The notes: generated by a model not told the origin, from the sequence alone. A DNA stretch of 64,000 nt from an uncultured Gammaproteobacteria bacterium (GCA_964504365.1 CAZDDW010000002.1:53246-117245), one strand, 5' to 3'; positions 6,603 through 55,324 are shown, counted from the stretch's first letter. Numbers and translations are program-made.

Positions 6603-6636
6603 TCTGACATTTGTCCTGATCAGGACAAATGTCAGA
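6603..6636. repeat. Perfect 34-bp palindrome (TCTGACATTTGTCCTGA|TCAGGACAAATGTCAGA)
   Basis: Read directly from the sequence; the two 17-nt arms are exact reverse complements. No T-run follows on either strand, so it is not a canonical intrinsic terminator. It lies right after tatD at the low-GC/high-GC junction. Confidence 0.9.
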
Positions 6637-6645
6637 AAATAAAGA

Positions 6646-6671
6646 AGACGCTCGAGTGAGCGTCTTTGTTA
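6646..6671 (+). terminator. Intrinsic terminator after tatD
   Basis: AGACGCTC-gagt-GAGCGTCT hairpin followed by TTTGTT. Confidence 0.6.
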
Positions 6672-6762
6672 TCTAGCAAGTCCGAGTACCTGATGCGCGC
6701 CAGCAAAAGTAAAAGACGCCACCCGCGGGGGTGACGTCGATGAGAAACGTGAAGGAACTGGT

Positions 6763-8517
6763 CTAGGCTTGGTCTGCCGGCTGTTCCGAACTGGCCTCGG
6801 CTTCCTTCTCGGCCGCAGGTGCCGGTTCGGAAGGCTTGGCCTCGGTCTCGGCACCACTGGAGTCCGGTGCTTCGGCCGCAGGCTTACGAGGCCTACGGGG
6901 CCGACGCCGACTTCGCTTGCGCGGTGCCGGCTCCTCGGAACCTTCCTCAGCCGCTGACTCGGCTTCGGCTTCGGCCCTGGCTTCCTGGATCCGATCGACC
7001 AGTTGGTCGACCTGTTCCGAATCCACCAGACACCTGGCCGCCTTGATCAAGACGGTCGCCCGGAAACCCATGATTCCGGGATGAACACGCCCAGCCCAAC
7101 CACCACGACGCACGGCCTTGTAGCCGGTGTCATGTCCGCGGTCGAGCTGATCGAAGCTCACACCGAGCATGAGCTCGAGCTTGGCCAGGATCGTATCGGC
7201 ATCGGCATCGTCCTCGAGACCCAGAACCGTCAAGGCCTGGTATCTCTCGGGAACGCCGCTACCACGAACACTGAAGAGGAATTCCCCCTTGCCAAGAGCC
7301 AGCTTGATCGCGATTGCCCGTGCTTCACGCAAGAGCGCCTTGCGCACCTTGCGTCCGTCGGACGAGCTCGGATCACCAGACCACCTTGCGCTGCGCATGG
7401 CCTGGAAAGCCACATCTGAGGCATGGTCTGCCTGAAGCTGCTCGGACTTGATGACCAGAGCCGCATCGAACAGATCAGCCACCTCACCCTTGCCAGCACT
7501 CATGGTCTTGCCGACCAGAGCCATGACGTAGATCTTCACACGACCGCCGTCAGGCTGGGGAATCCAAACCTGGTTGTTGTACTTGGTCAGACCTGTCATG
7601 ACCAGCTCACGCCGGGCATCCTCGATGACCTGCAAACGCTCTTTGCGCCCCTGGTCAGAACTCGGATCACCCGGGAAGCCAGCATTGATCATGACCTGGA
7701 AGACCGGATCGTCAGCGCCTGGATCTCGAACATCGCTCAAGGCCTTGGCCCGCGCATCGACTGCGTTCGAACTGGTCTTGTCCGATTCGGAATCGAGTCC
7801 GAACATTTCCCAGCAGCTCATGAACGTACCAGTGCGTGCCACGATCGATCCCGGGGGACAGATCAGGGCTTCGGCCTTGGACTCATCGATCTTGACCGTG
7901 CCATCGTTGAACTCGCCGGCATCGACCATCTGCGCAGTTGCCCGCGCAGTGGCGTGGATCAAGCCAGGGTGCATCACCTTGAACATGATCGGAACCTGGG
8001 AACGATCCTTGACCGCACCGGCCTCGATCTCGTCGTCGTAGTACGGGGCCTCGTTCTGAGGACCGCGCCAGAGAACCTCTGCACCACGGAAATCACCGAT
8101 CCAACGCTGACCCTTCTTGGTGAAAGCGACGTAAAGGAAGTTGCGGTCAACAACCTCACCATCCAGCGCACCCTCTTCGCCGAGCCAGGTATGCTCGAAC
8201 ATCGGCCACGCCAGACTGGTGTTCCCGCGCATCGCAGACGGCTTCACAGCCACGCAGATGATCGGCGCACCCAAGCGCACCAACAGCCTGGTCGGATCCG
8301 GAATGACCACCTCGAATGTCTGGCCGCCTTCCACAGGCGTGAACTGACCAAGCACTCTTCCGCGATACAATCCATCTTCTCCCGTGGTACCAGGACCGTC
8401 GCTGCCAAAGAAGACCTGACCGTAGGAAAGATCACTCTGCCGGAAACGGTGTCCCAGCGGATGAAAAACCTCTCTGTTGATCCTGATCATCTCTTGTCTG
8501 TACATTTCGTCACTCAT
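6763..8517 (-). CDS. Hypothetical 584-aa protein from high-GC islet 1, with an internal duplication and a Lys/Arg/Pro-rich C-terminal tail
   Basis: Long ORF in a ~62% GC region, with GGAGG 7 nt upstream of ATG. Two internal segments resemble each other (SDVRDPGADDPVFQVMINAGFPGDPSSDQGRKERL and SDVAFQAMRSARWSGDPSSSDGRKVRK). The C-terminus (PRKRSRRRPRRPRKPAAEAP, followed by an acidic stretch) looks like a histone-H1-like disordered tail. A hairpin plus TTTTACTTTTG terminator follows downstream on the minus strand (~6700-6740). Confidence 0.6.
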   Translation of the reverse strand: MSDEMYRQEMIRINREVFHPLGHRFRQSDLSYGQVFFGSDGPGTTGEDGLYRGRVLGQFTPVEGGQTFEVVIPDPTRLLVRLGAPIICVAVKPSAMRGNTSLAWPMFEHTWLGEEGALDGEVVDRNFLYVAFTKKGQRWIGDFRGAEVLWRGPQNEAPYYDDEIEAGAVKDRSQVPIMFKVMHPGLIHATARATAQMVDAGEFNDGTVKIDESKAEALICPPGSIVARTGTFMSCWEMFGLDSESDKTSSNAVDARAKALSDVRDPGADDPVFQVMINAGFPGDPSSDQGRKERLQVIEDARRELVMTGLTKYNNQVWIPQPDGGRVKIYVMALVGKTMSAGKGEVADLFDAALVIKSEQLQADHASDVAFQAMRSARWSGDPSSSDGRKVRKALLREARAIAIKLALGKGEFLFSVRGSGVPERYQALTVLGLEDDADADTILAKLELMLGVSFDQLDRGHDTGYKAVRRGGWAGRVHPGIMGFRATVLIKAARCLVDSEQVDQLVDRIQEARAEAEAESAAEEGSEEPAPRKRSRRRPRRPRKPAAEAPDSSGAETEAKPSEPAPAAEKEAEASSEQPADQA

Positions 8518-8624
8518 TGTTCGCCTCCATCTGCCTCTTGGGCAGTATTCGTGTTGTTCTGGTTAAAATGACCGTTGTCGTCCTTTTTATTAGACTGATC
8601 AGACTACCATAGTTTTTTGCCTTT

Positions 8625-8681
8625 GTCAAGCCTAAATAGCCTAATTAAGGCTTGACAGAACTGGTATTTTGTGTTAACTTA
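8625..8681. promoter_or_regulatory. Symmetric divergent promoter
   Basis: TGTCAAGCCT (8625-8634) and AGGCTTGACA (8648-8657) are reverse complements, and each arm contains a TTGACA -35 box. On the plus strand, TTGACA is followed by 18 nt and then TGtTAACTT. On the minus strand, TTGACA is followed by 17 nt and then TGgTAGTCT. Confidence 0.6.
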
Positions 8682-8722
8682 GGTTGTTATTAGCTCATTC
8701 ACACACTTACGGAGGACAGTAA

Positions 8723-9739
8723 ATGGTCCCTGCAGACGAACGAGAAACGATCGATGACGAGACTCAGATGGATATCAGGGTCGTAGAAGCGAGTATCAGC
8801 CCCTGGGTTGATGATCTACGAACCAATTTCCCTTACTGGCCGGATGAGGATGACGGTGAACAGCCACCAACGTTCACCCAGGCCAGGGAAGAGGACGCCG
8901 CGGATGAACGCTTCCGAGAGCTTTGCGATGATTCTGGTCTAGCTGCTGATCTGATCATCATCGTTCTGGAAGGGATCGATACGGACCTGGAAACCGATCC
9001 TGTGCCGGAAGACCTGTTCCAGGAAGCTCGGAATCGGATCGAGGCAGAAGACGACAGCCTCACCGTTCAGCTGATTGACATTGCTCTGCGCTACCTCTTG
9101 TACACGGATTCGAACAACGAAGACGACAACAGAAAACACGCAGCAGCAATCAAGGATGCCTTGAGTCAGCCGGAAGCATCAAAGGAGGCGAATGAACCTG
9201 CGAAAACCGCAGCTGAGCCGAAGACTCCGGCCAAGCCCGGGGTTCCACCCAAGCCTTCGATGCCTGGAGAAGGTGGTGCAGAAGGTGGTAGGCCCGGAGC
9301 TTTGCGGAAGACTGATGGTACGCAAGAGCAGCCTCCTCCTCCCGAGAAGACTCCACCGGAGGCAACTACTCGAACTACTCAGCCGGCAGAACCGCCACCA
9401 CCGACGCCCCCAGATGGCTCGAGCGATGACGACCTCAAGGCAGAGCCACGCTACGTAGAGCTGCTTGCAGCTGCACAGCGAAACATCACCAAAGCAAGAG
9501 CTGGAGAAGCTCCGGCTCAGCTCTGGCTGGATGTGACTGTGTCAGACTTGCGTAAGGGAACAGGCGTTGGTTCACGAACCCACCCCAACCCGATTTACGC
9601 AAGACTGGCTGCTGATGGGACGACCATCCGAACAGGCTTCGATCACAGGGACAAGAACGCCCGTGCCAGAAGCCTTCTGGTCCGAGAAATCCAGGCTCTG
9701 GTCACTCAGGCCGGCCTGAAGATCAACCGCCTGCGTTAG
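8723..9739 (+). CDS. Hypothetical acidic protein with a Pro-rich linker (islet 1)
   Basis: 338 aa with a GGAGGA SD site. The N-terminus is acidic, the middle has PPKP/PPPPTPP low-complexity sequence, and a C-terminal domain follows. A TGCCGCTCAGC...GCTGGGCGGCA hairpin lies downstream at ~9750-9780. Confidence 0.6.
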   Translation: MVPADERETIDDETQMDIRVVEASISPWVDDLRTNFPYWPDEDDGEQPPTFTQAREEDAADERFRELCDDSGLAADLIIIVLEGIDTDLETDPVPEDLFQEARNRIEAEDDSLTVQLIDIALRYLLYTDSNNEDDNRKHAAAIKDALSQPEASKEANEPAKTAAEPKTPAKPGVPPKPSMPGEGGAEGGRPGALRKTDGTQEQPPPPEKTPPEATTRTTQPAEPPPPTPPDGSSDDDLKAEPRYVELLAAAQRNITKARAGEAPAQLWLDVTVSDLRKGTGVGSRTHPNPIYARLAADGTTIRTGFDHRDKNARARSLLVREIQALVTQAGLKINRLR

Positions 9740-9868
9740 CAGGAACTCATTGCCGCTCAGCTCAGCTGGGCGGCATCTTAATTTCCATAAATTTTATACC
9801 CTTGATCTTTTTACGCCTTTGTTATACACTACGGGCGAAATTTTTAGGCTAGTGAATACATTTACTCT

Positions 9869-17782: not shown

Positions 17783-18415
17783 ATGGCTAACGCACTAGGC
17801 GTCAACCCAACCCGACAAGAACTGCTAAAACTCAAGGTTAAACTTAAAACCTCTGAGCGTGGTTATAAGTTACTCAAAGACAAGCGTGATGGTTTGATGA
17901 AACAGTTCATGGAGATCATTCGTGAAGCCAAGGATCTGCGTGAAAAAGTTGAAGCTGATCTGTCAGTTGGATTTCAAGCTTACTTGTTTGCTTCTGCTAA
18001 GACTTCGCCAGATCTGTTGAAAAGCGCTTTCTTATTGCCTTCGATGAAAACTTATCTGCAGGCTGACGTGAAGAATGTCATGTCTGTGAACGTGCCAGTA
18101 TTCGAGTACAAGGAAGAAGGCGACTTTTTGTCTTATGGATTCAGTTTTACAGCCTCAGAGCTTGATACGGCGCTGAAGAGTTTCTCAGAAAGCTTGAAAG
18201 ATATGGTTCGTCTCGCTGAGGTAGAGCATAGCGCCAAGTTGCTAGCAGAAGAGATCGAAAAAACACGTCGACGAGTAAACGCGCTTGAATACGTCTTCAT
18301 TCCAAAGATGAAAGAAACAATCAAATACATCCAGGCCAAGCTAGCAGAACAAGAACGCGGAACGATTATCACACTGATGAAGGTCAAGGATATGTTGGTA
18401 GAACAGGAGGGATAA
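17783..18415 (+). CDS. ntpD: V/A-type ATP synthase subunit D
   Basis: The N-terminus MANALGVNPTRQELLKLKVKLKTSERGYKLLKDKRDGL is typical of subunit D. This is the last gene of the operon. Confidence 0.85.
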   Translation: MANALGVNPTRQELLKLKVKLKTSERGYKLLKDKRDGLMKQFMEIIREAKDLREKVEADLSVGFQAYLFASAKTSPDLLKSAFLLPSMKTYLQADVKNVMSVNVPVFEYKEEGDFLSYGFSFTASELDTALKSFSESLKDMVRLAEVEHSAKLLAEEIEKTRRRVNALEYVFIPKMKETIKYIQAKLAEQERGTIITLMKVKDMLVEQEG

Positions 18416-18429
18416 AATAGATTAAATAG

Positions 18430-18468
18430 GCGGGGTCCCTTGACCCCGCTTTTTGTTTATGCTAAGTT
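18430..18468 (+). terminator. Intrinsic terminator of the ATPase operon, fused to an islet promoter
   Basis: GCGGGGTC-cctt-GACCCCGC hairpin followed by TTTTTG. The TTGACC inside the 3' arm, followed by 17 nt and TGcTAAGTT, forms a promoter for the downstream islet gene. Confidence 0.7.
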
Positions 18469-18496
18469 CTGGCCAGGACATTGAAAGGAGACACTT

Positions 18497-19162
18497 GTGA
18501 AAATCGACGGAAACGAATTCGTTGTTGCTTCTTCTGACATCGGACGCATCAGAGCTGGGTACATCTTCATGCGCCGGGCTGAGCGAGAGGGCTGCCGGGT
18601 CGAAGACCTGGACAAGCTTCAGGTTCGTTTCCAAAACGGACCCGAGACAAGCTCGTATACCCAGGTGGAACTCCAGCACCTGCTCGACCTGATGGGCCAA
18701 TCTTGCAGCGAAACCGACGTCCTGCGTGAACTCGGGATCGTGCCCGGTTACCGCGGGCATCTGCCCCCGGCCTGGAAGGCCGCCTACCTCTACCGCGGTG
18801 ACCAGGAGTTCCTGCTCGGTGACATCTGGCTCGACGAGTCTGCTGTTTGCCGAATCGCCCGGCGTCTGCACAGCATGCAGCAGGACGAAGAAGAGCACTG
18901 CGTGACCGTTGTCCTGCGCGAGACCTTGCCCGAAGAACTCTTCGACAAGCCGGACCAACTCACGCCCGAACAGGTACGTGAGCATGCCGCCATCGTCATC
19001 AGGCATGGCGAAATCATCTTCAGCGTCCCGTCCCACCGTGACGGCTGGGGCCCGCGTGGATTCGGTGAGCTGGCCATCAGTGCACTGAATGGCAGCTTCC
19101 TGGCCCTACTCGAACACGCCAAGTTCACCTCCACCCGCCTGCACACGCCGGCAAGCTCCTAG
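18497..19162 (+). CDS. Hypothetical protein, paralog 1 of an islet-2 pair (GTG start)
   Basis: 221 aa in high-GC sequence, with an AAAGGAG SD 7 nt before GTG. It shares domain order and motifs with the next gene (…F(Q/E)NGP…Y..V.LQ.LLD.M..SC.E.D(V/I)LR…(I)VPG(Y/F)…). A hairpin plus T7 terminator lies at 19169-19195. Confidence 0.65.
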   Translation: MKIDGNEFVVASSDIGRIRAGYIFMRRAEREGCRVEDLDKLQVRFQNGPETSSYTQVELQHLLDLMGQSCSETDVLRELGIVPGYRGHLPPAWKAAYLYRGDQEFLLGDIWLDESAVCRIARRLHSMQQDEEEHCVTVVLRETLPEELFDKPDQLTPEQVREHAAIVIRHGEIIFSVPSHRDGWGPRGFGELAISALNGSFLALLEHAKFTSTRLHTPASS

Positions 19163-19254
19163 CACTTCAGCGACCACACTGGTCGCTTTTTTTATATCTT
19201 GACATAGCACTTAGTCCATGCTAAGTTCTGCTCAGCACCTTGAAAGGAGCGAAG

Positions 19255-19911
19255 ATGGAACCCACGCCAAACGGAGTTCACATTCTCGATACTGACATCG
19301 GCAATGTTTCTGCGCTAGACGTTTTCCGTCTCGACGCCGAGACCGAGCGTGAGCGCGACCTGGAGCACCCGGATCACATCCTGGTCACCTTCGAAAACGG
19401 CCCTGGGCCAGCTGAGTACGACCGTGTTGCTCTTCAGCTTCTGCTCGATCGCATGAGCATGTCCTGTGGTGAGGGCGACATCCTGCGCAAGATCAAGATC
19501 GTTCCTGGCTTCATGGGCATAACGTTTCCAGCCCACTGGGAGGACGTGGTCCTGTTCGATGGTAATGGCAATTACCTGGTCCACCCTGTCTCGCTCGACG
19601 AGGTCGCTGTGGTCCTTATCGCCAAGAGTCTGCATGACGAAAAGCTGTTCGGTGAGCGCCATGCCGTAGTCGTACTGCGTCGCTCAGACCTGCCCGAGGA
19701 CTGGAAGCCCGGTGATTCGATCGAGGCCGAGTTCATGATGAACACAGCCACCATCGTCATCAACCACAACAACGTCTACCTGCTTTCGTCTGGTGCCCAA
19801 CACTACAAGGCGATCAGCTTCGGTGACGTTCACATGGCCAAGCGCCAACAGCGTGACTCGCACTCCTTCACCATGTACACCTCGACCCGTTTGCGGCCGC
19901 CGATGCCGTAA
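19255..19911 (+). CDS. Hypothetical protein, paralog 2 of an islet-2 pair
   Basis: 219 aa with an AAAGGAG SD. The upstream leader ATGCTAAGTTCTG…TTGAAAGGAG is nearly identical to that of paralog 1. A CCCGC…GCGGG+T5 terminator lies at 19920-19940. Confidence 0.65.
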   Translation: MEPTPNGVHILDTDIGNVSALDVFRLDAETERERDLEHPDHILVTFENGPGPAEYDRVALQLLLDRMSMSCGEGDILRKIKIVPGFMGITFPAHWEDVVLFDGNGNYLVHPVSLDEVAVVLIAKSLHDEKLFGERHAVVVLRRSDLPEDWKPGDSIEAEFMMNTATIVINHNNVYLLSSGAQHYKAISFGDVHMAKRQQRDSHSFTMYTSTRLRPPMP

Positions 19912-19979
19912 CGCACACACCCGCCTCAGCGCGGGTTTTTAATTCGTGGAAAAGATGGGGATATTAAAAACAAAAACCC

Positions 19980-20008
19980 TTGACACGAATGCCTAGGATC
20001 GATACGCT
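19980..20008 (+). promoter_or_regulatory. Sigma70-like promoter (TTGACA-17-TACGCT) with no ORF downstream
   Basis: TTGACA is at 19980-19985 and TACGCT at 20003-20008. No ORF of 60 aa or more follows on either strand before the terminator at ~20232. Confidence 0.5.
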
Positions 20009-20015
20009 GGAAGTG

Positions 20016-20262
20016 AGCCGGGGATCGCGCTAGTTTAGTTAAGTTCAAGAGGGTAGGACTGTGAAAACAGAAACCGATCTGCGGGAGGAACAAAGCACTG
20101 AAAGAGACGGGGATCGCATAGGAAGCTATAAAGTCACTGCAACTCTACGAGTGTCATGACCTGATAAGGTACAGCCTTTCAAAGGGGGAAGACCCTGAAG
20201 AACACCTGGATTGGAGAACTCGGCTCAAACAAAAAACTGACCCTGCGGTCGGTTTTTTGTAA
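20016..20262 (+). ncRNA. Candidate ~245-nt small RNA (unclassified)
   Basis: Bounded by the promoter above and by a hairpin terminator ACTGACC-ctgc-GGTCGGT+TTTTTTGT at 20234-20262. The complementary ends GAGCCG (20017-20022) and CGGCTC (~20222-20230) can close a long stem. No coding potential was found. Confidence 0.4.
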
Positions 20263-20265
20263 TCT
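20228..20265. terminator. Bidirectional intrinsic terminator (A-run/hairpin/T-run)
   Basis: CAAACAAAAAACTGACCctgcGGTCGGTTTTTTGT reads as a hairpin with a U-run on both strands. It would serve the plus-strand sRNA and the minus-strand gene 20294-20611. A second hairpin GACAGGC-gtaa-GCCTGTC lies at 20270-20288. Confidence 0.6.
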
Positions 20266-20293
20266 GAGGGACCGACAGGCGTAAGCCTGTCAT

Positions 20294-20611
20294 TTAAGTT
20301 CCTTGCTCGACTCGCTGCAATGCATGTAACTCAGCGTTGAGCTGCTGAACACCAGGATGCTGATCAGTATAACTATAGCCTTTTAGCAAATCTCGATCAC
20401 CTGTAATACTGCGTCGAGCATCTTCAATTTTAGCTTTTCGTGTAGCTCCTTCAAGGCCTTCAAATCGCTGTGCAAACACGATCATGGCCTGCTGAATGGC
20501 TGCGCTGTCTAGTGTATCAGCCGAAACCATGTCTGGTTGTGATTCAACCTCAGGCACCATGCTGGCCGCAGCTTCTTTTTGAGCTGCTCGTTTACCAAAA
20601 AATTCTAACAT
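20294..20611 (-). CDS. Hypothetical 105-aa protein (islet 2)
   Basis: ORF with an upstream TTGACA-17-TAAGAT promoter on the minus strand at ~20640-20670. Confidence 0.45.
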   Translation of the reverse strand: MLEFFGKRAAQKEAAASMVPEVESQPDMVSADTLDSAAIQQAMIVFAQRFEGLEGATRKAKIEDARRSITGDRDLLKGYSYTDQHPGVQQLNAELHALQRVEQGT

Positions 20612-20698
20612 AAAGTATCAGTTAATTTTTGTTTATCTTAGGCTGTTTGGGGTCAAGTGTCAAGGGTGACTAAGAAGGGAATGACACACTTCAGTGTG

Positions 20699-21052: not shown

Positions 21053-21067
21053 ACATTCTAGCACACC

Positions 21068-21093
21068 TGTCACGTCGCTCGCGAGCGACGTGA
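21068..21093. promoter_or_regulatory. Perfect 26-bp palindrome GTCACGTCGCTCG|CGAGCGACGTGAC between the -35 and -10 elements (candidate operator)
   Basis: Exact reverse-complement symmetry, read directly. It lies between divergent genes 20699-21052(-) and 21160-21489(+). Confidence 0.7.
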
Positions 21094-21159
21094 CTTGACA
21101 CAATCAACTTTATCTGATAAGTTACTTCCTTCTCAACGAAGACAAAGGAGGGAAGTACT

Positions 21160-21489: not shown

Positions 21490-21513
21490 GACCGTTTACC
21501 TCAGACTCCACTT

Positions 21514-21570
21514 GACCCACCTCGGGTCTTTTTCTTTTGGGTTGACAATTTGTGTAGATTCAAATATATT
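21514..21570 (+). promoter_or_regulatory. Terminator-promoter module copy 1
   Basis: GACCCacctcGGGTC hairpin, then TTTTTCTTTTG, then TTGACA (21543-21548), 16 nt, and TATATT. Confidence 0.7.
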
Positions 21571-21605
21571 AACGCTGGTTCCTGAACAAAATTACAGGAG
21601 AAATC

Positions 21606-41393: not shown

Positions 41394-41488
41394 GGTCCTG
41401 TTCAGTGCCTTGACCTTATTTTGTTTTATTGCTATAATACAGGCGGTCTCTGAAAAGGCCGCTTAAGATTCTTAAGAATACCAAGGCT

Positions 41489-41674
41489 ATGTTTGACGAC
41501 TTCACACCAGCAGCTGATGATGCAGCTCCAGCAGATGATGCTGCACCTGCAACAGACGACGCTGCTACAGAAGAGGCTGCTCCTGAAGCACCAGCTGAGG
41601 AAGCTGCTGCTCCTACAGAGGAAGCTGCTGCTCCTGCTGAGGAAACTCCTGCAGAGGAGGCTCCAGCTGCATAA
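41489..41674 (+). CDS. Small acidic low-complexity protein (Ala/Glu/Pro/Asp repeats)
   Basis: A TATAAT box at 41432 precedes a 61-aa ORF of (D/E)AAPA-type repeats. The underlying DNA has ~18-bp tandem repeats (GAGGAAGCTGCTGCTCCT), and a GGGCctagaGCCC hairpin follows. Confidence 0.4.
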   Translation: MFDDFTPAADDAAPADDAAPATDDAATEEAAPEAPAEEAAAPTEEAAAPAEETPAEEAPAA

Positions 41675-41699
41675 GCAAGTCATCTCATAGGGCCTAGAG

Positions 41700-42330
41700 C
41701 CCGTTCAAAGAGTGTCACTTTATGTGACGCTTTTTGATTTAAAAAAGTGTAATATGTTTTACGACACATCAACATTAAAAAGCAACGTGGGGTAGAGAGG
41801 GACAAAAAGAAACAGTTACATCAGGTACCAAGTTACCTGTTTTTTCTTAAAACGTGTTACAACAAGTCAAAGTAGATTTAAAAACAACAAATATAAAAAA
41901 CACGAAATCGAAAACGGCTCTGTAACGATTTCACAGGTATCAAGACACCTATAGAATATATGTAAATTTAGAAATAAAACGCAGATAAACAAACAGCGGG
42001 GACCAAGCCACATTTTACGTACACAAACACGTATAACAGGCTGTTTGTGTCGTAACAATGTGGCTAATGTTAGACCGACACATAACCTTATGCCTTAAGC
42101 TTGGTTATGTGTCGTCTAACATATATTGTGCGACACACTATCTCGCTTAAATATACGATCCCCTACGTATTTCTTTTAACTTTTCATTACAAACAAATTG
42201 TTGCTTTTTATTTATCATTAATGCACTTATCTTGTTTCTTGAAAAGCAAACACGAATCAAAAAGAGGGTGCTTTTAACACCCTCCCTATTCTGAGCTCCT
42301 CTATCCCCCACTCTATGTGTCGCAAAACAT
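41700..42330. other. Unusually long (~630 bp) AT-rich non-coding region with a repeated TGTGTCG/CGACACA motif and several hairpins
   Basis: No ORF of 60 aa or more on either strand. There are five copies of TGTGTCG (42046, 42075 inverted, 42105, 42128 inverted, 42312). An imperfect 18-bp inverted repeat GTTAGACCGACACATAACC…GGTTATGTGTCGTCTAAC spans 42069-42122. A plus-strand terminator CAGGTAccaagtTACCTG+T6 lies at 41822-41850, and a minus-strand terminator hairpin GAGGGTG…CACCCTC at 42263-42285. Confidence 0.6.
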
Positions 42331-42542
42331 TATATGGTCAGTGGCATAAATAAATATCGAATGGCCAACATGACAGCACCGGCGATCATAACTCCAATCC
42401 CAACATTAATTAACGTGCTTACCGTTTGATCTTCTCTCTTCAAGTCCTTCATCATCATCACAGTTAAAAAAATAAATAGGATTCCTGGAAACAAGAAAAA
42501 AATAAATCCAAAAATGGTTAGCAACATGGCTATCTCTTCCAT
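42330..42542 (-). CDS. Hypothetical 70-aa two-TM membrane protein
   Basis: Hydrophobic ORF. Its start codon overlaps the upstream M23 peptidase gene. Confidence 0.45.
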   Translation of the reverse strand: MEEIAMLLTIFGFIFFLFPGILFIFLTVMMMKDLKREDQTVSTLINVGIGVMIAGAVMLAIRYLFMPLTI

Positions 42543-42543
42543 A

Positions 42544-43761
42544 TTAATAGTCTACTAAATAATTTAATGGGTTAACTGGAATACCGTTTAAACGGACTTC
42601 AAAATGAAGATGAGGTCCAGTTGAAAGACCGGCTCCTGAAGTTCCTGGCATTCCACCTGATAATGCAATTGTTTCTCCTCGCGAAATAAATTGATCAGCC
42701 GAGACCATTGGTTTTGACAAGTGAGCGTATAACGTGGCTATTCCATTCGTATGAATTACCATGATGTAATTCCCATAAAGCCGCCCTTGCTTAACCCAAG
42801 CTACGTATCCTGGGGCTGGGGCCGTGATTGGGGTCCCTTGCATTTGAGGAATATCGATACCTGAGTGCTCAAACAAATGACGGAATGGATAGGTTGGATC
42901 ATGATAATAGGCCGAGATACCACGATAATTTGGATCTAACGGCCAAGACAAAATCGTTGCGTCTCCATAGATATCAGAATCAAGAATCTTGTTCTCGATT
43001 TCGTTTTGCAGTGCTCCGATCTGCTGTTCAATATACTGTTCCTCCTGACTAAGTTCGTACAACAAAGAAGCAAACTGCGCTTCTGAGTAATTCACCTCAG
43101 CCACCAAAACCTCCTTGGCACTGACCTCGTTTTCAAGCAACATTATTTCCCTTTCTAGTTCTTCTTCTAAATCCACCAATCGCAACAAATTCTCTTCTTT
43201 AACAGTCTGCTGCTCTTCTAAACGATCCCGCATCCCTTTTGTATCATCTAGGGTCGCAGCCAAATCGCTGTTCACCTCTTCAAGATAACGCAACTGATCA
43301 AATAACTCAGAAAAGGAATCGGTTCCAAAAACCAACTCCAATAAACTATTTTCATCATATTGGTTCATGCGTCGTAAAATCGAGGCCAACAACTCTTTCT
43401 GTACTTCCAACTTTGCCTCAAGATCAAGGACCTCGGCTTCGATGGCATAAATTTCAAGCTCGGTTGTTTCCACTTCTAATTCTGTTGCTTCGATATCCAA
43501 ACCTGTTTTAGCAATTCTATTTTCTAAAATCGCAACCTCTGTTTCTAAAGAAATCGATTCAGCCTGCTTAGCGCTTATCTGCTCTTGATACGACTCAATC
43601 CGCCGATTTATCTGATCCAAATGAACTTTCTTTTCCTCAATCACCTCACTCAGCTCATTGACCTTCTCTGTTGTACCCTCCTCAGCAAAAACAAACTGCA
43701 TTGATCCCATTGGTAGGATCAATCCAGTTAAAATAACAAGCTGTATTAGTTTTTGTTTCAT
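42544..43761 (-). CDS. Coiled-coil M23/LytM-family peptidoglycan endopeptidase (EnvC-like)
   Basis: A signal or TM sequence, a ~250-aa coiled coil, and a C-terminal M23 domain with HxxxD…HLHFEVR motifs. Confidence 0.85.
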   Translation of the reverse strand: MKQKLIQLVILTGLILPMGSMQFVFAEEGTTEKVNELSEVIEEKKVHLDQINRRIESYQEQISAKQAESISLETEVAILENRIAKTGLDIEATELEVETTELEIYAIEAEVLDLEAKLEVQKELLASILRRMNQYDENSLLELVFGTDSFSELFDQLRYLEEVNSDLAATLDDTKGMRDRLEEQQTVKEENLLRLVDLEEELEREIMLLENEVSAKEVLVAEVNYSEAQFASLLYELSQEEQYIEQQIGALQNEIENKILDSDIYGDATILSWPLDPNYRGISAYYHDPTYPFRHLFEHSGIDIPQMQGTPITAPAPGYVAWVKQGRLYGNYIMVIHTNGIATLYAHLSKPMVSADQFISRGETIALSGGMPGTSGAGLSTGPHLHFEVRLNGIPVNPLNYLVDY

Positions 43762-48561: not shown

Positions 48562-48599
48562 ACAAAAATATCATATCACAGATCTGATTCACTAGATAG

Positions 48600-48619
48600 C
48601 CGATCGGTTAGTTAGTGAA
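48600..48619. promoter_or_regulatory. Copy 2 of the 20-bp direct repeat, ~40 bp upstream of the 48561 start
   Basis: Exact 20-mer CCGATCGGTTAGTTAGTGAA. Confidence 0.75.
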
Positions 48620-48690
48620 TCATTGTATTTTGTGTCTTGGGTTTAATCTCTGTATATATTTCCACAAGTGATAAAGAAAAAAGGCCAGGA

Positions 48691-49080
48691 TCAAGTCCTG
48701 GCCGGAGAAGTCCGAACCCGGGCACGGTGCCGATCGCTGAAGTGTTCAGCAATCTTGCGCACCCAGAACCAGTTGTCAGTTTGTGTACCGTCTTGAAGGA
48801 AGGCCCTATTGCCTTCAAAGAGCAAGTGCCCATGCTCGGCACAGAATTCCACCAGCTCGGTCAGCATGGCCATACCCGGCTCATTGGCCCTAATCGTGAA
48901 AGCGTCGACAAGCACTGCCTCGTCGGTTGGCAAACTCTCCAGCCGTCCGTTCCAGCGCTGGAAATCGAACTCGGCCTGCACTCGGTGCATGGCCGCGCAG
49001 ACCCGTGAGGATCGCTCACCCAAGTTGATCACGTAGCCGGTGTAAAAAATCTTGACTTTGGTTTTTTTGTCGTCGCTCAT
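48691..49080 (-). CDS. Hypothetical 129-aa protein (islet 4)
   Basis: High-GC ORF with an AGGGGGA SD. A downstream minus-strand terminator GGCCAGGA…TCCTGGCC+TTTTTTCTTT lies at ~48655-48690. Confidence 0.5.
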   Translation of the reverse strand: MSDDKKTKVKIFYTGYVINLGERSSRVCAAMHRVQAEFDFQRWNGRLESLPTDEAVLVDAFTIRANEPGMAMLTELVEFCAEHGHLLFEGNRAFLQDGTQTDNWFWVRKIAEHFSDRHRARVRTSPART

Positions 49081-49176
49081 TTAATCCCCCTAAAAGAACC
49101 AGTTTTGGTTTTACCATTAATAAACGCGCCTGTCAACCCATGTTGCAATATGCTAAACTGGATCAGAGGAGGAGTC

Positions 49177-49671
49177 ATGGTAACAACCACTAAACGAGAA
49201 GCTGTACGAGAATCTCTCGGGCCTCTGGAACGTGCTCAACAAGCGAAGCAGGAACAACTTGCTCGTGTAAGAGCAGTATACGGTAAAGACGTTTCACATA
49301 TGGCCGAAGCGGCGGCAACAGATGTGTGGTACACGGCACTACTGAAGTTGAAGATGGTTGGTCCGTTCAGACGGATTGTGTTCGATGCTCTGAGGAGAAA
49401 CGATCCAAGACCAACAAAGGTTGTGGTCACAGGCAATTTCGGTGATGTGGTGATCACGTTATCTGATGACGAAGTTCGTTTCCAATACTACGGCGACCTG
49501 GAATTCCTCAAGCTTTCGTTCTTTCAAAAGACCTACCTACACAAACCAGGTCCTGAACGACCCTTGCGGATCGACTTCTCGGTTCCGGTCAAACCGTATC
49601 TTGACACAATCCATGACAACGATTTCGGTCGCGCCATGGACAGACTCAACAGCGGACACTGTCCTATCTAG
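49177..49671 (+). CDS. Hypothetical 164-aa protein (islet 4)
   Basis: AGGAGG SD 6 nt before ATG. An upstream TGTCAAC…TGcTAAACT promoter lies at ~49126-49155. A CCAGCTCAccTGAGCTGG+T6 terminator lies at 49675-49699. Confidence 0.55.
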   Translation: MVTTTKREAVRESLGPLERAQQAKQEQLARVRAVYGKDVSHMAEAAATDVWYTALLKLKMVGPFRRIVFDALRRNDPRPTKVVVTGNFGDVVITLSDDEVRFQYYGDLEFLKLSFFQKTYLHKPGPERPLRIDFSVPVKPYLDTIHDNDFGRAMDRLNSGHCPI

Positions 49672-49699
49672 CTACCAGCTCACCTGAGCTGGTTTTTTC

Positions 49700-49728
49700 T
49701 TGACTCAATCCCGTTAGCACTCTATAAT
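49700..49728 (+). promoter_or_regulatory. clpB promoter: TTGACT-17-TATAAT
   Basis: TTGACT at 49700-49705 and TATAAT at 49723-49728. Confidence 0.75.
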
Positions 49729-49740
49729 ACAGAGTGCTAA
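49714..49740. promoter_or_regulatory. Perfect CIRCE element (HrcA operator) overlapping the clpB -10 box
   Basis: TTAGCACTC-N9-GAGTGCTAA is an exact match to the CIRCE consensus, read directly. clpB starts 13 bp downstream. Confidence 0.85.
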
Positions 49741-49752
49741 TTTAAGCCTATT

Positions 49753-52395
49753 ATGTTACCAAACAACTTTACACACAAATCTCAAGAAGCTATTCAAAAT
49801 GCGCATAACCTAGCTGTTGAAAACGGTCAGGCAGCGATCGAGCCGATTCACTTACTCGCTTCCCTGCTCTCTCAGGACGACGGCGTGGTTATTTCTATTT
49901 TTGACAAAATGAATCTTGATATCGCCACCTTGCGGGGCGAGGTCGACACAATTCTGGATACGCTACCTAAGCAAGAAGCCATGGGTGGTGGCGGTATTGG
50001 CCAGGTTTACTTGTCACAACCAATGGCTCGTGTTTTTGCTACAGCCAACAAAATTGCCAAACAGTTCAAGGACGAATACATTTCAACTGAACACCTGTTC
50101 CTTGGTTTAATGGTCGACAAGAATGTTAAAGGTTTGTTGGAACGTTCTGGTGTAGTTGAGGCTGAGGTGTTAAAAGTTTTAAAAAAAATTCGAGGAAATC
50201 AGAAAGTGGATTCACCAGAACCAGAGTCTAAGTATCAGGCGCTGGAAAAATATTCAATGAACCTGACTGAAATGGCGCGACAAGAAAAACTGGATCCAAT
50301 TATTGGGCGCGACAAAGAAACTCGTCGTCTGATGCAGATCCTGACTCGCCGAACCAAGAACAACCCGGTCCTGATTGGTGAAGCAGGTGTTGGTAAAACT
50401 GCGATTGCCGAAGGTCTTGCTCAGCGAATTGTTGCTGGTGACGTTCCTGAGTCATTGAAGAATAAAGAACTAGTCGCTTTGGATCTTGGTGGTATGGTTG
50501 CTGGAACAAAATATCGTGGTGAGTTTGAGGATCGTTTGAAAGCCGTGATTAAAGAGATCGAAGAATCTGAAGGACAAATTCTGTTATTTATCGATGAGCT
50601 ACATACTTTAGTTGGAGCTGGAACTACAGAAGGCGGATCGCTTGATGCATCTAATTTACTCAAACCCGCTCTGGCTCGTGGAAAGCTGCGTACCATTGGC
50701 GCGACCACGCTCAAGGAATATCAGCGGCACATTGAAAAAGACCCAGCATTTGAACGTCGCTTCCAACCAGTGTTAGTTGAAGAACCTTCTATCGAGGATA
50801 CGATTGCTATTCTGCGTGGAATCAAAGACCGCTATGAACTGCATCACGGAATCCGCATTGCTGACGCAGCCATTATCGCTGCAGCTGAACTGTCCGCCCG
50901 CTACATTACTGACCGCTTTTTACCGGACAAAGCCGTTGACCTGATCGACGAGGCTGGCTCTGCTTTGCGTATGGAGATTGATTCCATGCCTGAGGAGCTT
51001 GACCATTACAAACGTGATGCTATGCGTCTTGAGATCGAGCGTGAGGCTTTGAAAAAAGAAGAAGACAAGGATTCTAAAGCTCGACTTGAAGAGATCGAAA
51101 AGCAACTAGCGGATCTGAACGAACAGTCTCGTGAACTGGAAATGAAATGGAAGAATGAGAAAGATAAGATCGCCGAAATCCGAGCCATTAAAAAAGCCAC
51201 TGATGAACTTCGAGCAATGGCTGACATTGAGGAACGTCGCGGCAACCTGCAGAAAGTTGCTGAAATCCGCTACAGCAAGATCCCGGCGCAGGAAGAAAAA
51301 CTGAAAAAGACAGAGGCCGAACTAGTTAACATGCAAAAAGATCGCGGTTTACTGAAAGAAGTTGTTCAGGATGAAGATATCGCCACAGTAGTATCCCGCT
51401 GGACCAACATTCCTGTTTCAAAAATGCTTGAATCAGAACTGACTAAACTGACGCGCATGGAAGAAGTGTTGTCAAAACGAGTTATTGGTCAGTCTGAAGC
51501 GATTGAAGCCGTCTCAAACGCTCTACGTCGCTCTCGAGCCGGTATTGCTGAAGAAGGCCGCCCAATCGGATCATTCCTGTTTTTAGGACCTACCGGAGTC
51601 GGAAAGACCGAACTTGCGAGAACTTTGGCCGACTTCATGTTCAACGACGAAAGCGCATTGGTACGTATCGACATGTCTGAGTACATGGAAAAGCATGCTA
51701 CTTCGAAAATTATTGGATCGCCTCCAGGTTATGTTGGATATGAAGAAGGCGGACAGCTAACTGAGATCGTTCGGCGCCGACCGTACAGTGTTATCTTGTT
51801 TGACGAGATTGAAAAAGCTCACCCAGATGCGTTTAACATGTTGCTTCAGATTTTGGACGAGGGGCACCTGACAGACGCCAAGGGTCGCAAGGTAAACTTC
51901 AAAAATACTGTTATCATCATGACTTCAAACATTGGATCTGACGCGATCTTAGAAATGACTACCAAAGGTGGCGGCGAGCTTGGGTTCGAATCAGATCGCA
52001 GCGATTCACCAGAACGCGATGAGGAGCGTATGCGCGAACGAGTGATGGGTATGCTCACAGAACACTTCCGCCCTGAATTCCTGAACCGGCTAGATGAAAT
52101 TACTATCTTCCACTCATTGTCTGAAGATAACATCAAACATATTGTTGAACTGCAGCTTGATCGGGTAGCCAAGCGCTTGCAAGAGCGGCGCAAGATCAAG
52201 ATCAAGATTACTGATGCGGCCAAAAAGCTGCTGGCAGAAAAGGGCTACGATCCCGCATTCGGTGCTCGCCCACTCAAACGCGTCATCCAAACTGAGATCT
52301 TAGATGCCCTGGCCAAGAGAATCATCGCCTCTGAGATCGAAGAAGAATCGACGATCACAATCGATGCGAGGAAAGAACAGATCACTATTTCATAA
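49753..52395 (+). CDS. clpB: Chaperone ClpB (AAA+ disaggregase)
   Basis: Two AAA+ modules ([15 protein letters not shown] and [11 protein letters not shown]), a middle coiled-coil domain, and an N-terminal Clp-N repeat. Length is 880 aa. Confidence 0.95.
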
Positions 52396-52405
52396 ATAAG
52401 GATAT

Positions 52406-52438
52406 TAAAAATCCGCAGGTGTGTACCACTTGCGGGTT
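52406..52438. terminator. Bidirectional intrinsic terminator between clpB and the minus-strand islet-5 gene
   Basis: AAAAATCCGCAGGTGtgtaccCACTTGCGGGTTTT. The hairpin has A/T runs on both sides. Confidence 0.6.
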
Positions 52439-52813
52439 TTAGATTCCGGACTTGAACTCGACCGGGACCTGGAAGACGTGGTTGGGCTCGATGTCGCGAG
52501 CTTCCATCCAAGCCTTGAGGGCTCTGAGCTGCAACCTGACAGGGTCATGGCCGCAATAGTAAGTCGTATCGCCTCTTACCTGAACCTCGCAGTCCATTGT
52601 CAGAACTAATTCCAGATCTCCATTGGATCGACGAACATGTACCACACCTTCTGGTCGTTTATCTTCGTCAACGATGAGCTGAAAACTCAGACCATGCTCT
52701 CGCACTCCCGCTTCACTGACTGGAATGATGGCTAGTCCAGTTTGCTCGGTCAAGTCACCCTTGGCCTCGGGTGAAAACACGATAGCCACGAAACCGATTT
52801 TCTCAACAGTCAC
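52439..52813 (-). CDS. Hypothetical 124-aa protein (GTG start), islet 5
   Basis: AAAGGA SD before GTG; high GC. Confidence 0.5.
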   Translation of the reverse strand: MTVEKIGFVAIVFSPEAKGDLTEQTGLAIIPVSEAGVREHGLSFQLIVDEDKRPEGVVHVRRSNGDLELVLTMDCEVQVRGDTTYYCGHDPVRLQLRALKAWMEARDIEPNHVFQVPVEFKSGI

Positions 52814-52919
52814 AGTGTTTCCTTTCTCTGTGGATTGTAATGGTTCAATGAATTAGACCTTAACAATCCTGTTCAGACTTGTCAAAATAAAAGACTCCGC
52901 AGTGATGCGGAGTTTTGAG

Positions 52920-53771
52920 TTACTCCTCCTCGCCGTTGTCGTCTTCTTCATCCGGATCCGGCTGTTGCTGGATCGGTCCTTCTGGCTGAACAAAGAAGAC
53001 TGGCCTGGCTTCTAGCTCGGTCGCCGGAATCCCTTCGTCCTGCAACAACTTTAGTAAAGCCGATTCGAACTCACCGAAAGTTGCGTGCACAAATTTGGGA
53101 CGAAAGCGCTCCTCAACGGAGTCAAAGAACTCCAGATGATCCCAAATATCTCCTGCCGGAAACATGTATGAGAACCGCGGATGACTACTTGTCCCTATAC
53201 CAGCACTAAATCGCACTGGCACTGTCTGGATCAACAGGCGGGCCACCGGTTCATCAATCCCACCTCCTGAGAACTGGGGGTACTTTAAATCAACGATTAG
53301 TTGTCTGCCCCCTGCCAGGAAACAGCGCAAATCAAATTTGACACCGGAAAGCAATATTGAGAAAAAGGACATTCTCCTGTCATCTTCATAATCAGGACTG
53401 CACCTATCCGATATGACGTAACGACCTCGTTCCCTGCTCAGTGATGGTAAGCGGAGCTCGTTCCTTTCGACACGCTTCCCGTAATACCCACGCAACGTTT
53501 TACGGTTTCGATCAAGTAGCGCTTGTGCCACCTGATCTTTATAGGTTGGCCGACCCTTGGCAGCCACACCCTTATTCATCCAACGCCAATCAGCTTGTAG
53601 CTGCTTGAAATCAGGTGGCAAGAGTCGACAGTCGGCTGGCACAAAATCAGGATCAGCATGCATCCTTTTCAGGTGCTCAACGCTTCGCGACAGCAAGAGC
53701 AACTTCTCGTAGAAGTCACGCATACCACACTGCGCGATATCGCGCCAAAGTTCGGAAGTAAAAAGAGCCAT
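52920..53771 (-). CDS. Hypothetical 283-aa protein with an acidic C-terminal tail (islet 5)
   Basis: GGAGATG SD. A terminator ACTCCGCA…TGCGGAGT+TCTTTTATTTTGACAAG lies downstream on the minus strand. Confidence 0.55.
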   Translation of the reverse strand: MALFTSELWRDIAQCGMRDFYEKLLLLSRSVEHLKRMHADPDFVPADCRLLPPDFKQLQADWRWMNKGVAAKGRPTYKDQVAQALLDRNRKTLRGYYGKRVERNELRLPSLSRERGRYVISDRCSPDYEDDRRMSFFSILLSGVKFDLRCFLAGGRQLIVDLKYPQFSGGGIDEPVARLLIQTVPVRFSAGIGTSSHPRFSYMFPAGDIWDHLEFFDSVEERFRPKFVHATFGEFESALLKLLQDEGIPATELEARPVFFVQPEGPIQQQPDPDEEDDNGEEE

Positions 53772-54049
53772 TTCATCTCCAGGCTTGTTGGAATTATCAC
53801 CGGTCTTTTTTCAAAGACGCATTGCCCTACTAGCCAAGCAGGATCGGGACACCCCAAGCTCCATTTCAGAGCTACATCCGGGGAGGTTCCTACAGCCCAC
53901 CTCTATTTCAGAGGTGTTGTCACATGCACCACGCACCAAGCTGTATTCTGCACTTTTCAGCACATCTCTTCTGGATGACATGAAGAGGACTTTCACCTTA
54001 ACAACCCAAACCTATTTCGTCAAAAAAAATCTCCGCATGGGTTGCGGAG

Positions 54050-54340
54050 TTAGAGTGCGTTGCTCGGGGTCTCGCCGGCGCGGCCGAGCTTGAGGCGACT
54101 TGCCGGCGGACCGGTACGTGGCGGACGCAGGTCGTCCTGTCCGATCTGCAGGCTCATTGCCTGAGCTGCACGATAGCCCGTGAAGACGATGTGGTCACGC
54201 TCACTCCGGATAGTGATCTGCTTGACGTGTCCGTCATGCTGAGCCTGGCTAGCCTGGAGCTGGGCCTGACCAACACTCTCGTCCTCAGTAACGGTCGGGT
54301 TGTTATCACCAAAACGGTAGGTCTCGATTCTATATCCCAT
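54050..54340 (-). CDS. Hypothetical 96-aa protein (islet 5); its start overlaps the stop of the upstream gene by 11 nt
   Basis: Coupled to the 170-aa ORF. A terminator CTCCGCA…TGCGGAG+T8 followed by GACGAA lies downstream. Confidence 0.5.
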   Translation of the reverse strand: MGYRIETYRFGDNNPTVTEDESVGQAQLQASQAQHDGHVKQITIRSERDHIVFTGYRAAQAMSLQIGQDDLRPPRTGPPASRLKLGRAGETPSNAL

Positions 54341-54842
54341 CTTCCCTCTCCTGCTCGTCCGTCATGGAAACGAGTTGTGGTGTGATGCTGAGTACCTCAG
54401 TCAGCTCCTCAGCGGTGCGTGTGATCGGTGATGGCTCACCGAGCTTGGTCTTGAGCTGCTGGATGATCCAGGCAAGCATATCGCTGGTCTGTGGCAGACA
54501 GAAATCGACTATCACACCTGATTCAAGTTGAACCGGCCTGGATGCACGGACCTGGAAATGGCGTTCTTTCTGTATCAAGACAACAACCAGATCATGGTCA
54601 GAATATTCGAGCACACCGATGACGATCGGGATGGCCGAGGTACGACCATTCTCTTCGATCTGGTCAACTTGTAGGTACGGCACGTCCATCAACTGCCAGG
54701 TTCGAATCATGTCTTCTCTCCAAGCCAGACGCACCATGAGCGACTCGGTGATCGCCCCTAGGGGCACCGGCTGATCAGTCTTTGGAAGTGTTCCTGGGAA
54801 CATGATCGCTCCTTGTGAAGGTTCGGATGAATAGCATGCCAC
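54330..54842 (-). CDS. Hypothetical 170-aa protein (islet 5)
   Basis: High-GC ORF and the first gene of an overlapping pair. Its start may lie at an internal Met. Confidence 0.5.
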   Translation of the reverse strand: MACYSSEPSQGAIMFPGTLPKTDQPVPLGAITESLMVRLAWREDMIRTWQLMDVPYLQVDQIEENGRTSAIPIVIGVLEYSDHDLVVVLIQKERHFQVRASRPVQLESGVIVDFCLPQTSDMLAWIIQQLKTKLGEPSPITRTAEELTEVLSITPQLVSMTDEQEREDGI

Positions 54843-55059
54843 AGATTTTCCAGGTTGTCAACAGGCCGGCCACTGGATGACTCAGGGTTTTGTTTGTGGA
54901 AGCGTTCGGCCCATTCGTGGTTAAGTCTTGGTTGGTGTCAGGCCTCACTCGGCGTCGGCCGGAACATTTAAGGTTAAGGGGTACGTTATATGACAGGCCT
55001 GATAGTCCGGCCTCCGATCGTTCCACAAATCAAAACCCTTCGTCATAATATTCTGTCGG

Positions 55060-55275
55060 TCAAAAAAAGTGGCCGGCCATAAACAAAGGACGAGGATATT
55101 CTTTTTGTGAGAACACGTGGAGCCGGGCCCACATCTTGCCATCAATAACTACCATTGGTTCTGGTCCCGGCGGAACATCGAGCGAGGCCCAGAGACTATT
55201 CTCTTTTTTCAACAACGTTCTGGCCGAGCGCTTCTCACAAAAATAATGTCCGAGTCCCCCATGGCCGGCCAGCAT
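55060..55275 (-). CDS. Possible small 71-aa ORF at the islet-5 edge
   Basis: High-GC ORF with weak support. GGCCGGCC octamers occur at 54869, 55070 and 55263. Confidence 0.25.
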   Translation of the reverse strand: MLAGHGGLGHYFCEKRSARTLLKKENSLWASLDVPPGPEPMVVIDGKMWARLHVFSQKEYPRPLFMAGHFF

Positions 55276-55324
55276 GTTATATCAACTGGCCTAAACAGCT
55301 AAAATCTGTTAGCATTTAAGCACT

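Follow-up and report, generated by a model that had tools for sequence, protein, structure and literature searches.

A stretch of 64,000 nucleotides (CAZDDW010000002.1:53246-117245 of GCA_964504365.1), referred to here as the window, contains housekeeping genes in a backbone of low G+C content (GC) together with several short GC-rich pockets of orphan genes, most of which are preceded by a Shine-Dalgarno (SD) sequence. The pockets, the signals that appear to express them and their presence in related genomes are the subject of this analysis. Judging from its protein matches, the organism is a bacterium of the Patescibacteria, or Candidate Phyla Radiation (CPR), with Uhrbacteria-like relatives; the top match of its ClpB among the GTDB species representatives (63% identity) is a Patescibacteria metagenome-assembled genome, and homologues of its V-ATPase subunit I carry the names Uhrbacteria or Patescibacteria. 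The genes that flank the pockets encode TatD, V-ATPase, a UvrD-like helicase, PBP2, GreA and ClpB.

Pockets were taken as GC-rich intervals in a 150-bp scan of the window. Runs were found at 6626-9801 (57.3% GC), 18451-20126 (56.7%), 21126-23101 (53.6%) and 31776-33676 (52.6%), and near ClpB the scan fuses two wider runs, 48676-51026 (48%) and 51451-55301 (50.6%). As delimited, pockets 3, 4 and 5 occupy ~32100-33680 (53% GC), ~48600-49700 (48%) and ~52400-55300 (51%), giving a count of five or six pockets at 48-61% GC against a backbone of 42-44% (local range 38-47%). The difference extends to codon usage, with a mean GC at third codon positions (GC3) of 0.60±0.11 (maximum 0.76) for 19 pocket genes versus 0.40±0.055 for 47 backbone genes, and with pocket versus backbone codon fractions of 0.82/0.34 for TTC, 0.79/0.41 for ATC and 0.77/0.42 for AAG; the codons CTC, CCC and TCC are almost missing in backbone genes. 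The original prediction, made from the sequence alone, had proposed five GC-rich islets on a low-GC backbone, and both the scan and GC3 uphold the division, with the amendments that pocket 4 is weakly enriched (~48%) and that the second islet is really two pockets (2a and 2b), since two SD-less genes of backbone type, at 46-47% GC, lie between its halves.

The pockets are not an assembly chimera or artefact. Seven metagenome contigs, assembled independently, encode the 584-amino-acid (aa) protein of pocket 1, and in the six of these that were compared pocket 1 and its flanks are 100% identical to the window. The sole difference among these six otherwise identical contigs is a 48-bp insertion or deletion in the CvpA (colicin V production) gene, at window position ~5697-5701 relative to one of them (L003), which yields a product of 188 or 203 aa. 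A sixth GC-rich pocket was also observed to the left of the window start, at 15900-18000 of contig L001, with 52-61% GC and four orphan genes between an M17 peptidase and a second GreA gene.

Translation signals separate the two sets of genes sharply. With SD scored as GGAG, GAGG or AGGA no more than 20 nt from the start, the motif precedes 13 of the 17 pocket genes scored and 1 of the 39 from the backbone (Fisher p=1.6e-8), and three further pocket genes have GGGG variants; the earlier claim of SD sites in islet genes and none in the backbone therefore stands save for that one backbone gene. Core genes without SD are also the rule in the backbones of four relatives (L090, L092, L093 and L133). 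Among promoters, the pattern TTGAC[ACT]-16-18-TA[AT]nnT occurs at 0.67/kb in pocket intervals and 0.10/kb in the backbone, and the extended -10 box TGnTAAG[TGC]T has 7 pocket and 3 backbone copies (0.52 vs 0.06 per kb, ~9-fold), while TGnTATAAT is a backbone feature, with 6 backbone copies and one in the UvrD promoter at a pocket edge. However, backbone promoters are likewise sigma-70-like (TTGACT-17-TATAAT for ClpB, TGTGGTATAAT for UvrD, TTGACC-17-TGCTATAAT at 41410), so that of the promoter pattern first attributed to the islets only the -10 subtype and the density of one promoter per gene are specific to pockets.

The predicted terminators, GC hairpins with a T tail, were confirmed: the tail TTTTTCTTTT has five copies in pockets and none in the backbone, and the best hairpin-plus-T-run sites of the window fall at the ends of pocket genes. 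Taken together, promoter, SD, gene and terminator form what reads in the sequence as an autonomously signalled cassette, as had been suggested. In six pocket terminators (19165, 19915, 22441, 22735, 32937 and 33631) CCACAC or CACAC was observed between stop codon and hairpin, a motif not seen at the TatD terminator. The further idea of a single cassette family did not hold, in that the pockets share no protein family and the exact terminator-promoter module (hairpin-TTTTTCTTTTGGGTTGACAA) is local. Its three copies flank the duplicated 112/114-aa cassettes, and tandem duplication thus accounts for part of the shared pattern. A metagenome scan with TTTTTCTTTTGGGTTGACA, looking for the module elsewhere as had been proposed, returned 39 single matches that were unrelated and showed no tblastx similarity to the window, so that the module is not a widespread element. 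The features are collected in Table 1.

Table 1. Pockets, predicted genes and putative expression signals of the window (TM, transmembrane segment; ORF, open reading frame; ncRNA, non-coding RNA)
Feature	Position	Strand	Details
Pocket 1	6601-9868		GC 0.55-0.61; between TatD (5719-6600) and first V-ATPase gene (9869)
Two hairpin-plus-T-run terminators 3' of gene A	6645-6738	-	stems 6666-6645 and 6738-6715
Gene A, 584-aa orphan with charged low-complexity C-terminal tail	6763-8517	-	SD GGAGG; GC3 0.68
Divergent A/B promoter block	8601-8680		minus TTGACA(8629)...TGGTAGTCT; plus TTGACA(8652)-17-TGTTAACTT
Gene B, 338-aa acidic proline-rich orphan	8723-9739	+	SD GGAGGA; terminator 9751-9775
Pocket 2a	18416-20290		first half of the second islet as first predicted
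221-aa gene cassette	18428-19162 (gene 18497-19162)	+	TTGACC-17-TGCTAAGTT; SD AAAGGAG; begins with terminator/-35 overlap
Tandem paralogue cassette	19169-19936 (gene 19255-19911)	+	TTGACA(19199)-17-TGCTAAGTT; SD AAAGGAG; terminators 19169-19187 and 19919-19936; product 218 aa from ATG, called the 223-aa family member
Candidate ncRNA, ~250 nt, ORF-less	19981-20270	+	promoter TTGACA-17-TACGCT; strong terminator
Two backbone-type genes	20294-21103	-	105-aa gene (20294-20611) and DUF7670 membrane protein (20699-21103); no SD; GC 0.46-0.47
Pocket 2b	21095-22790	+	four single-gene cassettes, each with TTGACA, SD and hairpin-TTTTTCTTTT terminator
Pocket 2b genes	109 aa 21160-21489; 112 aa 21606-21944; 114 aa 22094-22438; 69 aa 22527-22736	+	terminators 21514, 21995, 22451 and 22747, the last abutting the UvrD promoter TGTGGTATAAT
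Pocket 3	32104-33752	+	terminators 32943 (TTTTTCTTTT) and ~33637; internal -10 box TGCTAAGCT at 32979
Pocket 3 genes	195 aa 32167-32754; 62 aa 32751-32939; 127 aa 33019-33402; 71 aa 33418-33633	+	start of 62-aa gene overlaps 195-aa gene; 127-aa product predicted in membrane; 71-aa product with one predicted TM
Pocket 4, divergent pair	48562-49752		129 aa (48691-49080, -); 164 aa (49177-49671, +), the latter with SD GAGGAGG and -10 box TGCTAAACT; terminators ~48670-48703 (-) and 49676-49699 (+), the plus-strand one leading into the ClpB -35 TTGACT at 49700
Pocket 5 cassettes	52396-55324	-	124 aa 52439-52813; 283 aa 52920-53771; 96 aa 54050-54340; 170 aa 54330-54842; terminator-promoter fusions TTTTATTTTGACA...TGTTAAGGT at 52885 and TTTTTTTTGACG...TGTTAAGGT at ~54023

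The history of pocket 1 was followed in neighbourhoods fetched through homologues of V-ATPase subunit I. The order TatD, A (minus), B (plus), V-ATPase recurs in L090 (GCA_054038955.1), L092 and L087, the last on a short contig without the TatD side. The upstream order of L090 (DUF3179-ThiI-methylase-MetRS-CvpA-TatD) is as in the window, and TatD is followed there by a divergent pair of genes, 453 aa (minus) and 275 aa (plus), and then the V-ATPase operon. These two L090 orphans, both with SD, have 58-66% GC and GC3 of 0.87 and 0.69 on a backbone of 43-47%, and the corresponding pairs have GC3 of 0.85/0.69 in L087 and 0.90/0.62 in L092. In the relatives, A and B thus lie at GC3 0.62-0.90 versus 0.31-0.55 for the backbones, with SD before both genes, and gene A spans 0.68-0.90 over four lineages. 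The divergent promoter block is kept in all four genomes, its two sides showing TTTGTCAAGCC and GGCTTGACA...TTTnTGyTAnnTT. The proteins themselves have diverged far: gene B and the 275-aa protein of L090 are 24% identical and colinear (E=3e-6), gene A and its 453-aa positional orthologue give a weak colinear match (E=0.012 to 1.6e-5), and identity in V-ATPase I is 60-71%. Separately, a ~60-bp inverted repeat (GACGCCCTTCCGGGCGTCACTCCTTTCGAT...), spotted by eye at 6480-6560 and 8230-8290 of L090, brackets the 453-aa orthologue of gene A and sets the two divergent promoters ~250 bp further apart; it may be a segment resembling a miniature inverted-repeat transposable element, or an invertible one.

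Pocket 2 can be followed in the pair L133/L134, which are syntenic with the window through V-ATPase D, two genes of the 221-aa family, small SD-led orphans, an SD-less low-GC block with DUF7670, further small SD-led orphans and the UvrD-like helicase; in another relative a member of the 221-aa family (protein P0126) directly follows V-ATPase D. Between L133 and the window the core proteins are 89-95% identical, the DUF7670 orthologue 59-60%, and the 221-family orthologues 44-50% (44% for the 221-aa gene itself and 50% for its tandem paralogue, compared with L133 7156-7791). Despite this decay of the coding sequence, the promoter, leader and SD, CTTGAC...TGCTAAGTTC...TTGAAAGGAG (or ...AGnACnTTGAAAGGAG), hardly vary, either between the two species or between the two paralogues. 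The leader of the UvrD-like helicase, for the rest conserved in L133, lacks there the stretch corresponding to 22800-22871 of the window, a GC-rich part of the 5' untranslated region in which the direct repeat CGACGCGCGAC occurs twice.

The time depth of this conservation can be judged from fourfold-degenerate sites of V-ATPase A/B and UvrD, at which the window and L133, its closest relative, share 42-51% identity, so that synonymous divergence of the core is near saturation. Position and sequence together show vertical inheritance of pockets 1 and 2, with their predicted expression signals conserved. The common foreign source put forward by the original prediction is not supported, as pockets 1 and 2 sit at the same sites in relatives with conserved promoter, 5' untranslated region and SD; comparison with syntenic genomes, suggested for defining insertion junctions, shows pocket 1 present in L087, L090 and L092 and pocket 2 in L133/L134.

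Searches with the pocket proteins returned little beyond the clade. No pocket-type protein has a Pfam, PHROGs or PADLOC match, and no integrase, transposase or recombinase is among the matches in these three databases; nor did ARAGORN (tRNA and tmRNA) or Rfam at its gathering threshold find anything relevant within the window, in agreement with the earlier statement that integrase, transposase and tRNA target are lacking. No att-like repeats were noticed and the junctions are ordinary terminators and promoters, although no dedicated repeat search of the junctions was made. The claim that no encoded protein belongs to a known family was right for all pocket-type proteins, with DUF7670 (Pfam 81.5 bits versus a cut-off of 29, E=7.8e-23) as a backbone-type exception. 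Word-indexed homology searches among 5.8e9 proteins gave self matches only for the 584-aa protein and for a profile of the 112/114-aa proteins, and an AlphaFold2 model of gene A made without an alignment was unusable (pLDDT 37). There was no tblastn match in phages (INPHARED) or plasmids (PLSDB), and no match of the 221/223-aa profile in IMG/VR; an exhaustive profile search of 1.84e9 representatives enlarged that family to 13 proteins. Paralogue pairs among pocket proteins number two, both tandem (221/223 aa, 36% identity, E=1e-32; 112/114 aa, 38%, E=1e-16), and no protein family is common to all pockets. Two known types of element were tried and rejected: integron gene cassettes, because there is no integrase and the cassettes carry promoters of their own (attC structure not having been specifically modelled); and prophage, because the flanks are housekeeping genes and phage matches are lacking in PHROGs, INPHARED and IMG/VR.

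These results bear on the possibility that all pockets were recently acquired by horizontal transfer from one GC-rich, SD-using donor, their signals being as yet unameliorated. As such a transfer would have it, the pockets depart from the genome in GC, in codon usage and in SD, and their proteins are orphans. However, pockets 1 and 2 are syntenic and keep their regulatory DNA over a distance that has saturated the synonymous sites of the core, the window scans (among which was no dedicated repeat search of the junctions) brought up neither integrase nor tRNA nor a repeat boundary, no donor-like homologues of the 584-aa and 112/114-aa queries came up among the 5.8e9 proteins, and pocket 1 is present on 7/7 retrieved contigs. 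For pockets 1 and 2 recent acquisition is largely refuted by these comparisons, and as an account of all pockets it is quite improbable.

If the composition of the pockets is old, something must be asked about its persistence. In the 221-aa family GC at fourfold sites (GC4) reaches 0.66-0.72 for the window genes and 0.49-0.65 for those of L133, versus 0.17-0.24 for V-ATPase A/B. The relative L093 (JGI Ga0611991_0019, a 1.5-Mb contig) has 60% GC and GC3 of ~0.83 with V-ATPase proteins 58-86% identical to those of the window, so that genome GC spans ~20 points within the clade, and in its SD-less backbone three SD-led orphans of 57-62% GC stand upstream of V-ATPase. One could propose that the high GC follows from the amino acids encoded, the proteins being disordered and rich in Ala, Pro, Arg and Gly, or from ordinary translational selection in genes with high expression. 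Pocket proteins are indeed richer than backbone proteins in Pro (6.4% vs 3.7%) and Arg (8.7% vs 4.6%), GC at first and second codon positions is slightly raised, and C-ending two-fold codons are favoured in V-ATPase and ClpB too. The largest shift, however, is at synonymous sites (GC3 +0.20, GC4 up to +0.5), and pocket non-coding DNA is also GC-richer (0.45 vs 0.36). Moreover, the putatively highly expressed core (V-ATPase A/B/c, ClpB, GreA) prefers NNT in fourfold families and avoids NNG, CCC and TCC, codons that pocket genes do use; with the GC3 and GC4 shift, this makes ordinary translational selection and amino-acid composition insufficient, and an explanation of this kind is highly improbable. 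To judge from the sequences compared, the high GC of the pockets is maintained and not left over.

The reading preferred here, with a probability of about 0.7, is that the pockets hold orphan cassettes of a class conserved within the lineage, SD-led, enriched in GC and fast-evolving, and are not recent foreign inserts. In this reading the core is AT-rich, packed in operons and SD-less, with TATAAT-type -10 boxes. Pocket genes instead form single-gene units: the predicted promoter of each combines a strong TTGACA -35 and an extended TGnTAAGnT -10, a short conserved leader carries a strong SD, and the unit ends in a hairpin-plus-T-run terminator, often fused to the following -35. Their proteins would be restricted to the clade, evolve at least ten times faster than the core and in part turn over, new cassettes arising through tandem duplication of whole units, and their composition would be decoupled from the mutation bias of the genome. 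As SD remains conserved while the coding sequences decay, it is likely functional, and we infer that it is read by a functional anti-SD, with the pocket genes translated as an SD-dependent class of their own while the rest of the cell initiates without SD. GC would be held high by a force specific to these loci, candidates being GC-biased gene conversion and selection on mRNA or DNA, and the proteins may serve fast-changing interactions, for instance with host or phage.

Several observations weigh against this reading of the pockets as a conserved class. The tracing in relatives covers pockets 1 and 2 only, and a search of genome contigs with ClpB, whose top match was 63% identical, gave no syntenic relative for pockets 4 and 5. 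Orthology of the A/B pair relies on position, orientation, promoter block and the weak protein similarity given above (E=1.6e-5 to 0.012), and pocket 1 is missing in L088 and in the P0126 contig. The dinucleotide signature differs moderately between pockets and backbone (delta*=72, with noise of 20-65). For the small pocket 2b cassettes no counterpart could be detected in L133, although the core is ~90% identical there, which implies turnover besides descent; the difference fits gain and loss, possibly by transfer. Lastly, pocket GC is ~0.5-0.66 whatever the GC of the backbone, the 60%-GC genome L093 included, which fits a shared external gene pool as well.

The main rival builds on such a pool. 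It supposes moron-like cassettes from a clade-specific mobile source of ~55-65% GC (CPR phages or plasmids, or GC-rich sisters such as L093) that are repeatedly dropped into, or exchanged at, a few permissive intergenic hot spots, GC being kept high by replenishment. The units are modules of promoter, gene and terminator, deviant in composition and not host-optimal in codon usage, and the wholly different 2b cassettes of L133, the missing copies of pocket 1 and the likeness of pocket GC in 43%-GC and 60%-GC genomes would all follow. Nonetheless, PHROGs, INPHARED, PLSDB and IMG/VR hold no match, no recombinase was found and no att-like repeat was noticed (again with no dedicated repeat search of the junctions), and the A/B pair and the 221-aa family keep position, orientation and regulatory sequence, with divergence that scales with that of the core. 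The mobile pool is accordingly considered rather unlikely.

A bolder extension of the conserved-class reading is offered tentatively, as possible but doubtful: the CPR clade may keep a compositionally insulated second gene compartment, in which high GC would be produced by a locus-specific process (GC-biased gene conversion, targeted mutagenesis or strong mRNA selection) and expression would follow a separate regime of TAAGnT-type extended -10 boxes and SD-dependent initiation. Such a regime could be switched independently of the SD-less core, for example through anti-SD accessibility, and would serve as a dedicated channel for genes of symbiosis or conflict.

Some known systems resemble the pockets in part. 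Phage morons, in the Juhala/Hendrix concept, are self-contained units of promoter, gene and terminator, deviant in composition, that lie inserted among the genes of a phage. The pocket units are alike in having a single gene between a predicted sigma-70-type promoter and intrinsic terminator, deviant composition, orphan products and a place between intact conserved genes; unlike morons, they are surrounded by the housekeeping operons of a cellular chromosome and not by a prophage, vertical conservation of pockets 1 and 2 reaches across genera, and no phage homologues were found. Genomic islands and ORFan regions share the compositional deviation, the lineage-restricted fast-evolving genes and the location in gaps between core genes, whereas the pockets are small (1-4 kb), lack integrase and tRNA target, occupy the same site in diverged relatives and have no direct repeats noticed at their junctions (no dedicated repeat search having been made); the sporadic presence of islands is not seen for pockets 1 and 2 in L087, L090, L092 and L133, save that L088 lacks pocket 1. 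The vls locus of Borrelia is a GC-rich antigenic-variation locus in an AT-rich genome, and raised local GC with fast-evolving tandem paralogues in an AT-rich genome is common to both, making gene conversion a candidate force for the pockets. In contrast to vls, there is no array of near-identical silent cassettes (the paralogues are 36-38% identical) and no population variation, the six contigs compared being identical in pocket 1 and flanks. Bacterial ORFans are reportedly AT-richer as a rule, unlike those of the pockets, which are GC-richer than their genome. Literature searches turned up no description of GC-richer, genus-stable ORFans with a distinct expression grammar.

For translation, the nearest parallel is in Bacteroidetes/Flavobacteria, where SD-poor translation goes with sequestration of the anti-SD by bS21/bS18/bS6 (Jha et al. 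2021, as cited in PMC9723584), and it has also been reported that about half of Parcubacteria lack the CCTCCT anti-SD motif (PMC9297842). As in the former group, an SD-less backbone stands beside a minority of genes with a strong, conserved SD, which implies two modes of initiation in one cell; the present phylum is a different one, and the SD-led genes are orphan cassettes and not rpsU. Neither the window nor the loci fetched from relatives contain a gene for rRNA or a ribosomal protein, and an indirect hint of an anti-SD is that the SD of pocket genes is conserved across relatives.

Atypical GC and codons with orphan proteins are routinely taken as recent transfer, yet here the combination is old and vertically inherited for at least two pockets. 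As the signature persists despite saturated synonymous sites, calls of horizontal transfer based on composition would be wrong for this lineage. The window is further a tangible example in which the coexistence of two regimes of transcription and translation initiation within a single minimal genome can be tested, and the contrast of SD-less core and SD-led cassettes makes start-site choice by the CPR ribosome addressable. It also singles out proteins that evolve fast and are presumably strongly expressed, which in uncultured ultra-small bacteria are candidates for interaction with host or phage.

Two further regions were also observed. The backbone contains a gene-poor gap of ~1 kb at 41394-42330, with no credible Rfam match (E-value mode, 41300-42650), in which the putative promoter at 41410 is followed by an ORF for a 61-aa acidic protein with Ala/Pro/Glu repeats (41489-41674). 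The candidate ncRNA of pocket 2a has no Rfam match in E-value mode over 18400-22900, and its predicted fold has an energy of -84 kcal/mol (z=-3.75 vs shuffles).

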